A stretch of DNA of 64,000 nt from a virus (lineage: Duplodnaviria > Caudoviricetes). The translations under genes were made by a program, and so were the position numbers. The stretch lies in IMG/VR virus record IMGVR_UViG_3300033074_000233, positions 32,001 through 96,000 of that record. One strand, 5' to 3'. The notes beneath the pieces were generated by a model, which was given only the letters and a program-made list of their open reading frames with translations, made no database searches and was not told the DNA's origin. Shown here one piece after another: positions 38,329 to 55,259 of the stretch. Each line of letters begins with the position of its first letter. Position 1 is the first letter of the stretch.

Positions 38329-39882
38329 TTAAAAGATGCGGCCGCCGTTGCGACTACGAAGGTCGACAACGGTAGAACGGATGTCCGAAACTGCCAGGCT
38401 GGAAGTCTCTTGGGTTTTGCCACCACGACGAAGGCCTGCACCTTCGAGGCGAGCCTCGGTAGGTACGGTCTCGTCCATGTCCACTTCGTCACCAGCATCT
38501 ACTACGGTGGTCGGCTGGTAGTTCATGTCGCCAATCGAAGTCGCAAGTTCATTGCGGAATTCAACGGATTTCGACAGAAGTTCCTGAGCCTTCTCGAACA
38601 GAGACTTGTGATACGGGTCATTGTACTGGGCAAAGACCTTGTCAACTACACGGGAGGCACCTTTGAAACCAGATGCAGCCAGTTCGTTTTTGAAGGCTTC
38701 TTTCAGCACATGTGGTGAACCCTTGAACCATCCTTTGTTCAAACCAGCAGCAACGATGCCAACTGCTTGGCGGAAGTCGTCGCTTACATCCTTAATCTTG
38801 GATGCAATTTCACGCTGCGCTTTTTCGACGCCAGCAGTAACACGCTCATTGACCAACTCCGGAACAGGGAACTTTACAGCAGCCAGTTGGAAATTGTAGT
38901 GAGCAAGTGCCTTTTCTGCGCCTACTTTACGAACAGTGTGCTTGATGGCGTTTGCAAACGCGGTGGTTGCGAATACGCCTTCATTTTGACCCGCATTAGC
39001 GCGAGTCAGGTGACCTACCGGAATGCCGCCTACGAAGGCAACAATACGATCACCATAGCGTTCAATCGACAGGTCACCCTGAACGATTGCCGCAAGACAG
39101 GACTCCTCGAAGTCCACTTCTTCATCTTCACCGACCGCGTCATCTGCATCGTCTTCCGCGCTTTCTGCGGATTCGTCTGCATCTTCACTGTCATCGGCCG
39201 TGGCCAGCATGATTGGTTCAGTAGCCGGCTTCGGCTCCTCAACTGCTACAACAGGTGCATCAGCAGGCTTGACGTTATCGACAGGTGCAGCCGGTGCCTT
39301 AACATCGGTTTCTGCAGCCTTAGGAGCAGCGTCGGTCGCAGCGGCTGCGGCCTCAACTTCTTCCGTTTCGTCTTCTTCGTCATTGATGGTCAGATCAACG
39401 TCGTCCATTTCCTCGTCAGTCAGATCGTCGCCATCGGCAGACAATTCAACATCTTCAAGGTTTTCTTCAACGTCTTCGCCCTCAGTCGGGGGCATGTATT
39501 CGATTTCTGTGCCACAGGTGACACAGTGCATCTTTGTACCCAAGGCAGAGGCAGTTTCGAGAGTTACGATGTTGTGCGTTCCGCAAGAGGAACACTCCAC
39601 ATTCGCAAGATTCTCGTCGTCACCAATGTCCTCAGGAGAAAGAGCACCTTCACCGTCTTCAACGTCAACCTCATCCGAGCCACAAGTGACGCAGAACGGT
39701 TGGCTACCTGCAAGGGCAGAGAATTGCGTAGTGCAACCCTCACACTTAAATGCAGACAGGACCGTATCTTTGTTCACTTCTGGTGCGGCAGCGGCAATAA
39801 CGTAGAAGCCGGCGCCTTTCTCGTCAGAAGCGGCGTTAAGAACGCTCGCCTTGACTAGATGTGCCTTCTTCGCCTTCGCCAT
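38329..39882 (-). CDS. Prohead scaffold/core-like protein with Zn ribbons and acidic linker
   Basis: Four CxxC pairs, long D/E region, helical C-terminus; first gene of capsid operon. Confidence 0.55.
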   Translation of the reverse strand: MAKAKKAHLVKASVLNAASDEKGAGFYVIAAAAPEVNKDTVLSAFKCEGCTTQFSALAGSQPFCVTCGSDEVDVEDGEGALSPEDIGDDENLANVECSSCGTHNIVTLETASALGTKMHCVTCGTEIEYMPPTEGEDVEENLEDVELSADGDDLTDEEMDDVDLTINDEEDETEEVEAAAAATDAAPKAAETDVKAPAAPVDNVKPADAPVVAVEEPKPATEPIMLATADDSEDADESAESAEDDADDAVGEDEEVDFEESCLAAIVQGDLSIERYGDRIVAFVGGIPVGHLTRANAGQNEGVFATTAFANAIKHTVRKVGAEKALAHYNFQLAAVKFPVPELVNERVTAGVEKAQREIASKIKDVSDDFRQAVGIVAAGLNKGWFKGSPHVLKEAFKNELAASGFKGASRVVDKVFAQYNDPYHKSLFEKAQELLSKSVEFRNELATSIGDMNYQPTTVVDAGDEVDMDETVPTEARLEGAGLRRGGKTQETSSLAVSDIRSTVVDLRSRNGGRIF

Positions 39883-39951
39883 TTGCGTCTCCGAAGTCCC
39901 AAGTTGTGAAATGTACGCCCTCAGCGACTTTCGCCGTTGTGTGCGTGCAAA

Positions 39952-39981
39952 CTAAAATTAGTATGCACAAGATTAAATTAC
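39952..39981 (-). promoter_or_regulatory. Tandem putative late promoters for capsid operon
   Basis: GTAATTTAATCTTGTG and CTAATTTTAG; TAATTTAATCTTGTG is identical to 26469-26483. Confidence 0.6.
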
Positions 39982-40274
39982 ATTCGAGTGCCTACACAGA
40001 CCTACCGCCGGCCTATAGGACACTATTAAATGGATACCACTAGGATTAAGCCTGAGGCAGTGCGTTAGTCTCTACTTGAACTACAAAGTATCTACTTCCA
40101 TACTCTAAGTTATTGATTTAGATACAATTATCACTCGCCAGGCTATTTAATACCTAAATATGTAAATAGCAGCACTGGGAAGAGTAATGATATGTTCCAG
40201 ACGGTAGTCCTGAAAGGGTACTGCATACCAGTGCCACATTAGACTATTGGCTATACGGACACACGGAGTAACAG

Positions 40275-40499
40275 ATGGAAGTATTGAAGTTCATTGGATT
40301 GGTACTAGCCACTTGTCTGCTCTGGCTATGTATACTGGCTGTCAGTATTGGAGTGCCTATGGGTATTGTATATGTGGGCTATATACTGTTTATTGGTACT
40401 GACTCTGTTTGGGTTAAGATGGCTATTGTTGCCGGGTGTACCTTTCCATTAGTAGAGATTGTTCCTTTCATTACCTCGATCTTGTTCAAGAAGGCCTGA
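40275..40499 (+). CDS. Small two-TM membrane protein
   Basis: GGAG RBS, two hydrophobic segments. Confidence 0.65.
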   Translation: MEVLKFIGLVLATCLLWLCILAVSIGVPMGIVYVGYILFIGTDSVWVKMAIVAGCTFPLVEIVPFITSILFKKA

Positions 40500-40508
40500 T
40501 TACACGGT

Positions 40509-41471
40509 ATGAAAAAGGTTAAGATTAAGTACCTAGAAAATGACAGCGGTGAAAAGAAGAAGATGACCATGACTGTACACACGGTAGTGCGGTCTGAATA
40601 CTCTGCAGGTAAGGGCCGGGTGTTTAAGGTTAATGACAAGATAAAGATGCGTGATGTGGCATGTGTCAGTAGTGGACGTAGGTTCATTAAACAAGGATGT
40701 GCTTTGCTGGCCGAGACTGGGAGTCAGGTTTGGTACACCACGTTTACTTACGCTAAGAAGGTTAATAGTGGACGTGTGGCCTGTGAGGACTTGAAGTGGC
40801 TTAAGGAACAAGCCTGTGTGGATAAGGGTGACAGGTTCATTGGAGTAATTGAACTAAGTGAGGATGGCGATCTGCACCTGCATTGTCTGAGCAGCAAGGA
40901 GATTGGTACTGAGGCTATTTGGAATAAAGGACTCGTGCACAGCCGGGTTCGGTACTACAACGCCGAGCGGGCTGGCAAGTACATGGCCAAGCAGTATGGC
41001 AATGGTAAGGAGTACACGGTCAGTTATAGGGGTGTGACCAAGACCTTCAAGGGAATGGAAGGGTTCAGAAAGTTGTGGAAGAATCTGCCATTTGCTATTA
41101 TGGACAGCGTGACCAATTCCTTGGTTAAGGATACAAGTAAGACCCAGAAGGCTGAGATAACCGAAGAGCAAGTAGAGATTGGTGAGGGAGAGTTGTTCGC
41201 TGTGATAAAGGCTGATCTGGCCTGTTTGGGTAAGTATGAACTTGAGGCTCTGGACGTTAAAGGGTTCAGGCTACGTTTGAATAACCTGCAACTCAATCGT
41301 GGGCGTAACGGTACGCTCTACGCCAACAACAACGCTGCCAAGAGCAGCCCGCTGGTACAGTGGATGATCCAGAACAAGAAAGACGTTCTGGTGGCCACTT
41401 TTCTTAAGGCCAAGGAGAGGCTTCTGCTCGATTACGAAAACAACCTGAATACGAAGAACAAAGTGCTCTAA
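40509..41471 (+). CDS. HUH rolling-circle replication initiator-like endonuclease
   Basis: Motif I WYTTFTY, motif II GVIE......LHLHCL, motif III GKYMAK in canonical order. Confidence 0.7.
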   Translation: MKKVKIKYLENDSGEKKKMTMTVHTVVRSEYSAGKGRVFKVNDKIKMRDVACVSSGRRFIKQGCALLAETGSQVWYTTFTYAKKVNSGRVACEDLKWLKEQACVDKGDRFIGVIELSEDGDLHLHCLSSKEIGTEAIWNKGLVHSRVRYYNAERAGKYMAKQYGNGKEYTVSYRGVTKTFKGMEGFRKLWKNLPFAIMDSVTNSLVKDTSKTQKAEITEEQVEIGEGELFAVIKADLACLGKYELEALDVKGFRLRLNNLQLNRGRNGTLYANNNAAKSSPLVQWMIQNKKDVLVATFLKAKERLLLDYENNLNTKNKVL

Positions 41472-41692
41472 TGGGCTGGAAATCGTGCAGTCCTAGGCGA
41501 GTTTTAGGGCTGTCGGTGTCTCTATCACATAGACGCTCTAAAAACCCTGTTTTCCTGCATGGTTTGTCTATGTAGGTGTGGGTCGTATATAGCATCAAAA
41601 GTTTGCTATAAAGGCTAGTTTGTGAGGTGGCGTGTTTTACGACGTATTCTGAGGGTCGTGAAAATAGGCGTTTTCTCATGTAAAAACGCGCC

Positions 41693-41721
41693 TTGTGAGG
41701 GTCGTTAGAATGTGCTATAAT
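41693..41721 (+). promoter_or_regulatory. Sigma70-type early promoter
   Basis: TTGTGA-17 bp-TATAAT with extended -10 TG, upstream of small-gene cluster. Confidence 0.7.
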
Positions 41722-41780
41722 AGCAGCGTAAGTGGGCCATGCTAGAACAGCGATCAAAAGTTTGCGTAAAGGAGCAAGAT

Positions 41781-42062
41781 ATGACGACCACGCGAGTAGA
41801 CTTCTTGGTGAACACGGTAAGCCTTGAAGGAAAAGGGACCTCAGTGTCAGGCATGCAGGGCAACGCGGAAGTGGCGCTTGAACTGTGCGCCAAGATGCAG
41901 GAGATAATGGCCAACGATGCCTTCATCGGGTTCAGTGACGAACAACTCGCCAGTCACGTTCGCCACTTGTTCAAGTACGGCCAGCACATGAATGAGCACG
42001 AGGGCCCGGTCCGCGACATTCAAGGTGAACTGGCAATTCATCACTGGTCACGCAAGTCGTAA
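41781..42062 (+). CDS. Hypothetical early protein
   Basis: AAGGAG RBS before ATG 41781. Confidence 0.7.
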   Translation: MTTTRVDFLVNTVSLEGKGTSVSGMQGNAEVALELCAKMQEIMANDAFIGFSDEQLASHVRHLFKYGQHMNEHEGPVRDIQGELAIHHWSRKS

Positions 42063-42096
42063 TACCAAACCAAACATTAGGCAAGGAGTAATATAC

Positions 42097-42348
42097 ATGC
42101 AAACTACCTGGACTAACGGCCGAGTGGCACTAGCGAAAGACCTGATCTTCGGTCTTTGTGTGTTCACCGAAAACGACAAGGGTGAGACGGAGTGGATTCC
42201 CGTTGACGCGCTGGAACTTGATGAAGTGGAACTGATCCATCGGATGGTTGACTACAACCCCGGCTGTATCTACCAGAACGATCTGAACGCAATCCTCGAA
42301 GCCAAGAAAAAGGAGAAGCAAGATGCGACCAATGACAAAGCGGGTTAA
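42097..42348 (+). CDS. Hypothetical early protein
   Basis: AAGGAG RBS before ATG 42097. Confidence 0.7.
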   Translation: MQTTWTNGRVALAKDLIFGLCVFTENDKGETEWIPVDALELDEVELIHRMVDYNPGCIYQNDLNAILEAKKKEKQDATNDKAG

Positions 42349-42682
42349 GGTCCTGTGCTTCATTGCACAGTTCCTTCCGTTCAATGTGATGCACGTTGAA
42401 GCCGTGCGTATCGGCAACCGAGTTACTGACGGCCTGTTTCTTTTCGGCAAGCACGTGTGGACGGAAACGAAGACAGATGAATCACAAGTTTACATCCACG
42501 ACTATTCAGAAAGTGAATTGACGTGGTGGGCATCGGAAGCAGGTGCCTTCAAGGCTGCCAACAGTGTTCACGCGATTGAAGTGCTTAACGGGTATGGTGT
42601 ACGACCTTATGCAATGGGCCCGTATGATACTCTGGAAAAGGCGGATCACTTTTCAAAGAGTCTCGGAGGTCAGAATGCTTAA
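42323..42682 (+). CDS. Hypothetical early protein
   Basis: AAGGAG RBS, tiled operon. Confidence 0.65.
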   Translation: MRPMTKRVKVLCFIAQFLPFNVMHVEAVRIGNRVTDGLFLFGKHVWTETKTDESQVYIHDYSESELTWWASEAGAFKAANSVHAIEVLNGYGVRPYAMGPYDTLEKADHFSKSLGGQNA

Positions 42683-45494: not shown

Positions 45495-45741
45495 ATACTC
45501 ACAATTCTGTAAAGTAGTATTGTGGGAGTGACGCTAGGGGGGCTAATCAAAAGTTTGCACATATCAGGTGTTCAAGCCAATGATTATCTTCAATGCGAAA
45601 CTGTAAAGTAATTCGCTAATTTCAAGTCCCGCTAGAAATCGTGCAAACGAGGCCTAGCAACAGTATTCCAGGCAGGTTGACCCCGTTGCTGTCAGGAGTG
45701 CATCAAAAATCAATGGGACCCTTCTAGAAGAGGTAGGTAAC

Positions 45742-51949: not shown

Positions 51950-52019
51950 CGCTGATTCTGTCGGTGTTGCGCCACCAAGTGTTGTAAAAGTGCTTGCAAA
52001 TCAGTGATTTACGACGCTA

Positions 52020-52049
52020 TTTACACGCTTGAGGGTCTTCTGCTATACT
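52020..52049 (+). promoter_or_regulatory. Sigma70-type promoter
   Basis: TTTACA-18 bp-TATACT with extended -10 TG. Confidence 0.55.
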
Positions 52050-55233: not shown

Positions 55234-55259
55234 AATCAAAAGTTTGCTGCGGAAATGAG

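Follow-up and report, generated by a model that had tools for sequence, protein, structure and literature searches.

What is the role of a folded, apparently non-coding stretch of about 230 nt that directly follows a gene for an HUH rolling-circle replication initiator (Rep)-like protein in a large double-stranded DNA phage? The stretch occupies positions 41472-41700 of the window, the 64,000 nucleotides of DNA analyzed here, which correspond to bases 32001-96000 of an IMG/VR virus record of 215,992 bp (216 kb; estimated to be 84% complete). Positions refer to the window unless given as genome positions, which refer to the whole record. The original prediction described a single G-U-rich multi-hairpin that might be a nuclease-associated non-coding RNA (ncRNA) or a single-strand origin or terminus. 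We find that the stretch is a composite of two joined parts, ~41472-41580 and 41570-41700. We tentatively read these as mRNA hairpins of a Rep cassette followed by a promoter control region, not as a single RNA or origin, an explanation that we regard as plausible but somewhat short of probable.

Genomic context of the spacer

The major head protein of the phage is ~47% identical to its counterparts in jumbo myophages of the phiRSL1, BcepSauron and GR7B type. Gene direction switches at the locus, from leftward (up to 39882) to rightward (from 40275), and the late and early gene blocks diverge at the Rep cassette, where a sustained rise of the record-wide cumulative GC skew also begins. The Rep-like gene lies on the same replicon as the folded region and ends 1 nt before it; the spacer under study is bounded by the stop codon of this gene and by a sigma70-type promoter that drives the first early gene (Table 1). 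Small ORF, Rep gene, spacer and promoter all fall within a C-poor island (~40150-41900; C ~17%, GC skew ~+0.25 with a local range of +0.2 to +0.37), and the skew of the adjoining genes is ~+0.03. The 74-aa product of the small ORF had no informative family match, and a tRNA scan of the region found none.

Table 1. Positions of features in and around the spacer (window coordinates unless marked as genome)
Feature	Position	Strand	Details
Small hydrophobic ORF, 74 aa	40275-40499	+	From ORF list; first gene of C-poor cassette; GC skew +0.23
HUH rolling-circle Rep-like gene, 320 aa	40509-41471	+	Motifs FTYAK, HLHCL, YMAKQY
Hairpin H1, 6 pairs	41473-41493	+	z -2.25; pair probability 0.98-0.99; starts 2 nt past stop codon
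Hairpin H2, 16 pairs, one bulge, one mismatch	41502-41545	+	-15.2 kcal/mol, z -3.9
Hairpin H3, 9 pairs including 2 G-U	41554-41576	+	-11.8 kcal/mol, z -5.6
55-nt module around 13-mer	41572-41627		Paralogous to genome 161675-161731
Hairpin H4 (TATAGCA/TGCTATA)	41588-41610	+	Loop and stem contain 13-mer 41594-41606
Region H5, near-isoenergetic alternative stems	41629-41692	+	From fold ensemble
Two 19-nt direct repeats, 84% alike	41647-41665 and 41693-41711	+	Flank hairpin 41668-41692
Terminator-like hairpin with T-run, 8 pairs	41668-41692 (scan site 41689-41668)	-	Tail CTATTTTCAC; from terminator scan
Sigma70-type early promoter TTGTGA-17-TATAAT, extended TG	41693-41721	+	From promoter scan; first early gene ATG 41781
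Second local 13-mer copy	41753-41765	+	40 nt past start of TGCTATAAT; leader of first early gene
13-mer copies, window	41594-41606, 41753-41765, 45546-45558, 55235-55247
13-mer copies, genome	128817-128829(-), 128947, 161697-161709(-), 161827, 167945

A metagenome scan for related DNA returned a single match, contig L004 (94% identical), in which late gene, spacer, small ORF and Rep follow one another as they do here. This contig breaks off inside the HUH gene, at Rep residue 86, and so ends without the Rep 3' flank. Compared with window 40190-40225, L004:590-640 carries inserts of 10 nt and 18 nt, the longer one duplicating GGTACTGCATACC; both fall in the structured spacer upstream of the small ORF. 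Megablast of 40400-42400 found no match among phage records, the adjoining late ATPase-like protein had no relatives in viral_contigs, and the promoter-plus-box DNA pattern described below was absent from the same collection.

On the evidence of its sequence, the 320-aa ORF encodes a genuine but orphan HUH Rep, whose recognizable distant relatives are the Reps of small Zot-encoding filamentous phages. Its three motifs occur in the order of the HUH Rep motifs and are invariant across the alignments of its few relatives, which are named rolling-circle replication initiators in PHROGs. The protein itself matches the Pfam family REP_ORF2-G2P (PF23343) below the cut-off (E 1e-4); one family member (P0004) scores above it, and distant relatives (P0005-7) reach E 1e-17 to 1e-19. 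A profile search of 1.84 billion representative proteins yielded only five hits for the family. The distant relatives lie on viral contigs, mostly of 4-9 kb, and because genes for a Zot-type ATPase and a serine recombinase are likewise present on both of the contigs examined, we take these to be filamentous-phage-like elements. Searches with the protein and with the alignments found no member in viral_contigs, and the alignments found none in genome_contigs either; tblastn (E <= 1) against 50,697 phage records and 72,556 plasmid records found nothing, and the profile had no match among PDB sequences. An AlphaFold model (pLDDT 45) was too poor for use, agreeing with the HUH core in secondary-structure order only. 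Conservation within the family extends along the entire protein, at 46% identity, which argues that the cassette is under selection.

Folding of the spacer

On the + strand, the RNA fold of 41472-41700 reaches -77.2 kcal/mol (z -3.65), with none of 200 dinucleotide-shuffled sequences folding as well; the z-score of the minus strand is -2.38. DNA parameters give z-scores of -4.34 (+) and -3.40 (-). When gaps of 150-420 nt from a rough ORF call of the whole 216-kb record were ranked with 40 shuffles each, the stretch came second on the + strand (z -4.6). The sole better-folding "intergenic" gap, genome 131219-131623, was rejected as coding sequence that the ORF call had missed, and 41472-41700 is the best-folding true intergenic region of the record on that strand and in that size range. 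As the fold both beats shuffled sequences and stands out among the gaps of the genome, it is more than chance.

All five stems proposed in the original prediction can be read directly from the sequence at their positions: 41480-90/41555-65 (11 pairs, two of them G-T), 41502-10/41535-43 (one G-T), the perfect stem 41588-94/41604-10 (TATAGCA/TGCTATA) with the 13-mer in its loop, 41629-40/41680-92, and TTTTACGAC/GTCGTGAAA. The two last were held to be mutually exclusive and to abut an early promoter, and both points are correct: alternative stems in 41625-41695 differ by at most 0.3 kcal/mol, and the abutting sigma70-type promoter is real. By contrast, the long stem 41480-90/41555-65, although it could pair, is 4.3 kcal/mol worse than H1 plus H3 and has an ensemble probability of ~0. 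The proposal that G-U richness signals selection on one strand also fell away. G-U pairs make up 13 of the 76 pairs (17%) in the + strand fold, fewer than in shuffled sequences (24 +/- 3.6%), and their ratio between + and minus strands, 13:2, compares with ~17:3.7 after shuffling. Both the G-U pairing and its excess on the + strand therefore reflect C-poor composition.

The stretch thus folds unusually well over its ~230 nt but is not the single element that had been envisaged. Its two parts differ in strand preference. The z-scores are -3.61 (+) and -1.06 (-) for 41472-41580 versus -1.20 (+) and -3.21 (-) for 41615-41700. A search of 39500-42500 against Rfam 15 (E <= 10) gave no match in the region and one spurious eukaryotic lncRNA model (E 8.7) outside it. 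No copies of the region were found elsewhere in the genome apart from the promoter and DNA modules described below. Some 9-11-mers are shared with other intergenic regions (GAAATCGTGCA, ACGCTCTAAAA, CTGTCGGTGT), at counts close to chance, and were discarded as evidence.

Sense-strand hairpins behind the Rep gene

The 5' part, 41472-41580, contains three hairpins (H1-H3) that occur nowhere else in the genome and reach significance only on the + strand. H1 and H3 have pair probabilities near 1 in the ensemble. H3 is stable on the + strand alone, its minus-strand counterpart reaching only -2.9 kcal/mol; for H2, the minus strand gives z -2.1. H2 has no directly adjoining U-run and was not flagged in the terminator scan. 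Indeed, no + strand intrinsic terminator (a hairpin followed by a U-run) that could serve the Rep gene was found in 41472-41700, and canonical GC-rich terminators are present elsewhere in the genome. Because no U-tract directly follows them, we infer that H1-H3 do not terminate transcription. A 34-aa ORF (41471-41575, +) runs through all three hairpins; its start codon shares bases with the stop codon of Rep (TAATG) and has no visible ribosome-binding site ahead of it.

We suggest that these hairpins belong to the Rep cassette, formed by the small membrane ORF and the HUH Rep gene, and would be carried on its mRNA if the region is transcribed together with it. There they may impede 3' exonucleases or serve as sites of processing, and would thereby determine how much Rep message is present and keep it apart from the downstream early operon. 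Intercistronic mRNA hairpins are familiar from the REP elements of Escherichia coli operons and from the RNase III sites between genes of phage T7. Like these, H1-H3 are stable, lack a U-tract, follow immediately on a stop codon and precede the next transcription unit; unlike REP elements, which are repeated, they have no further copies in the genome.

Early-promoter modules in the 3' part

The 3' part, 41570-41700, is assembled from modules that recur elsewhere in the genome. Local alignment of the 55-nt module with its paralogue, which lies on the opposite strand relative to its neighboring genes, scores 50-69.5, compared with 22 +/- 4 for shuffled sequences. A paralogue of the 41668-41692 hairpin precedes the promoter at genome 161787; relative to it, the hairpin here is inverted, which places its T-run on the minus strand. 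The second of the 19-nt direct repeats that flank this hairpin contains the -35 hexamer; a third, shorter copy, TTGTGAGG, is found at 41620, and TTGTGAGG also forms the -35 area of another early promoter. Beyond the hairpin, 41697-41783 shares 76% identity with another early promoter and its leader (genome 167891-167975). In region H5, the pairing options are 41680-92 with either 41629-40 or 41668-75, and 41633-41 with 41657-65.

At the center of the 55-nt module is the 13-mer ATCAAAAGTTTGC, of which the record holds nine exact copies, all intergenic, where 0.006 would be expected by chance. Four copies follow a TGCTATA(A/C)T extended -10 element, at a distance of 39-40 nt from where that element starts. 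Three promoters additionally carry a 13-mer in inverted orientation 74-79 nt upstream; inverted copies bracket these promoters ~118 bp apart. One copy stands between a stop codon and a terminator. At the locus studied here, the upstream box at 41594 has the direct orientation, with 107 nt separating it from the -10 element, unlike the inverted boxes at 74-79 nt of the other three promoters, which means that the locus is not a plain copy of the common layout. A reading of the 13-mer as a sigma54 or ordinary promoter was rejected, on account of its spacing and of the copies in 3' positions.

The 13-mer (ATCAA-AAGT-TTG) matches all nine specified bases that follow W in the IHF consensus WATCAANNNNTTR (PMC9452768, PMC10380432). 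The W itself (A or T) precedes six of the nine exact copies, as counted from their flanks. The phage encodes a Bac_DNA_binding protein of the HU/IHF family (genome 144182-144679, +; 24.2 bits, above the Pfam cut-off). About 100 nt downstream of the gene for this protein lies a one-mismatch copy of the 13-mer (genome 144780, minus strand). IHF sites are known to flank promoters and origins, for example at lambda pL and in the f1 origin enhancer. The 13-mer resembles such sites in fitting every specified consensus base and in standing at fixed distances from promoters, but all 13 of its bases are identical in nine copies, a conservation far stricter than that of ordinary IHF sites, and this makes a specific binder encoded by the phage equally likely. 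Only three of the seven H4 stem pairs would form in the paralogous copy at genome 161675-161731, as read from the alignment, indicating that it is the box and not the H4 hairpin that is conserved.

We propose that 41570-41700 acts as double-stranded DNA to control the early promoter at 41693-41721. Its upstream 13-bp box is probably bound by host IHF or by an HU/IHF-family protein of the phage, the hairpin at 41668-41692 would stop leftward transcripts, and the repeated -35-like words may form a further part of the control DNA. A sequence at 41713-41725, TGCTATAATAGCA, is a perfect 13-nt palindrome, and the minus strand therefore reads TGCTATTAT, which is extended -10-like too. A leftward start at TGCTATTAT would reach the terminator-like hairpin (41689-41668) after ~35 nt and could yield an RNA of ~50 nt.

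Alternative explanations

What speaks for the composite reading is the strand-specific significance confined to 41472-41580, the lack of a + strand terminator, the paralogy of the modules and of the promoter with its leader, the number and placing of the 13-mer copies, the fit of the box to the IHF consensus, the Bac_DNA_binding protein of the phage and the lack of an Rfam match. Counting against it are the differing orientation and distance of the upstream box at this locus and the fact that one-strand hairpins beside a Rep gene also have the appearance of a single-strand origin. The whole region could be the cis DNA site of the HUH Rep, with the + strand hairpins of 41472-41580 as a single-strand (lagging-strand) origin and, additionally or alternatively, with H4 and its 13-mer loop as the nick site and three TT(G/C)TGAGG repeats as binding repeats. 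We consider this unlikely. Single-strand origins have a length of ~160 nt and a strong fold, and their function depends on orientation (PMC5703833); conserved sequence elements such as RSB (PMC5703833) and priming by RNA polymerase also characterize them. Both the one-sidedness of the 41472-41580 fold on the + strand under RNA parameters and the DNA-parameter z-score of that strand for the whole stretch favor an origin; however, the minus strand of the stretch also folds well under DNA parameters. What adjoins the region appears to be a genuine HUH Rep, with the Reps of small filamentous phages as its closest recognizable relatives, yet among the distant inovirus relatives it is mostly a small ORF, not a folded spacer, that comes directly after rep. 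The C-poor bias covers gene and spacer jointly, as expected for present or past single-stranded DNA, and the cassette stands at the onset of the sustained skew rise, but the carrier is a 216-kb dsDNA phage. As for the proposed nick site and repeats, neither the 13-mer nor the 55-nt module nor the hairpin at 41668-92 is confined to this locus, since all recur at early promoters far from HUH genes. The paralogous copy has not retained the H4 stem, and TGAGGGTC occurs ahead of a promoter without a neighboring Rep gene as well.

The comparison with known systems is similarly divided. The single-strand origins of rolling-circle plasmids (ssoA, ssoU) and the Ff intergenic region are, like the stretch described here, non-coding DNA of 100-230 nt beside an HUH Rep. 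Strong folding is shared, in part of the stretch on the sense strand only, and the Rep is of the filamentous-phage (G2P) kind. The differences are the 216-kb dsDNA genome and the fact that more than half of the stretch is common to promoters elsewhere in that genome.

The stretch might instead be a functionless relic, in which left-over palindromes of a captured filamentous-phage-like module, having drifted from C to T on the + strand, are joined to an ordinary promoter region. This, too, we find improbable. It would account for the C-poor island, which is real, and for a G-U frequency no higher than composition predicts, and the 19-nt direct repeats around the hairpin do look like a duplication or insertion scar. 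Composition does not explain the z-scores of -3.6 to -4.6 against dinucleotide shuffles or the top rank in the genome, however, and full-length conservation of the HUH family at 46% identity speaks for a cassette under selection.

A bolder version of the Rep-site proposal is the domestication, by a giant dsDNA phage, of a filamentous-phage-type Rep and the cis sites that go with it, namely H4 as nick site, the TT(G/C)TGAGG repeats as binding sites and 41472-41580 as single-strand origin. The other 13-mers would then be further sites addressed by the Rep, either nick-primed origins or programmed nicks. We hold this to be quite unlikely.

More doubtful still is a separate small ncRNA made from the + strand, whether as partner of a nuclease or as a regulatory sRNA. 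The significant + strand fold would suit such an RNA, an extended -10-like sequence, TGCTATAAA, can be read at 41604-41612, and the alternative stems in 41625-41695 resemble a switch. Against this, Rfam yields nothing for the region even at E 10, no + strand terminator bounds it, the genome has no copy other than the DNA modules, and the region divides into parts of differing strand preference. Pfam and PHROG scans of the neighboring genes found no guide-using nuclease (TnpB or IscB) and no Y1 TnpA beside the region. The resemblance to the omega RNA at the right end of IS200/IS605 elements, which is likewise a structured non-coding stretch 3' of a gene with an HUH enzyme involved, therefore goes only so far: TnpB and IscB are missing, the Rep has 320 aa in place of the ~140 aa of a Y1 transposase, and Rfam gives no match.

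That the stretch is coding is extremely improbable, since the 117-aa minus-strand ORF (41404-41757) would cross the early promoter and overlap the Rep gene, and its product, not a called gene itself, has no homologue among 5.8 billion clusters, and since the 34-aa + strand ORF has no ribosome-binding site ahead of it as read from the sequence, even though both frames are open and the TAATG overlap resembles translational coupling.

The explanations differ in what they would mean. Should H1-H3 function as an origin or as an RNA that partners the Rep, this would be a case of a giant dsDNA phage employing rolling-circle machinery acquired from a filamentous phage, with a bearing on how replication starts at the divergence of late and early genes. 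If the stretch is an mRNA and promoter spacer, which we hold to be the likelier case, its value is smaller: it would illustrate how early promoters are assembled from a few shuffled modules, here an IHF-like box, a hairpin and -35-like words.

Some further short words recur near early promoters. Three of the four genome copies of TGAGGGTC lie just upstream of such promoters. At window 52008-52049, TTTACGACG is followed by TGAGGGTC upstream of a fifth TGCTATACT promoter, in the same order as in 41636-41657. The hexamer GCTAGA is present in four early-promoter leaders (window 41741-41746; genome 128923, 161802 and 167933), at a distance of ~6 nt behind the -10 element or of 6 nt ahead of the 13-mer, and once more in another early intergenic region (window 45627).
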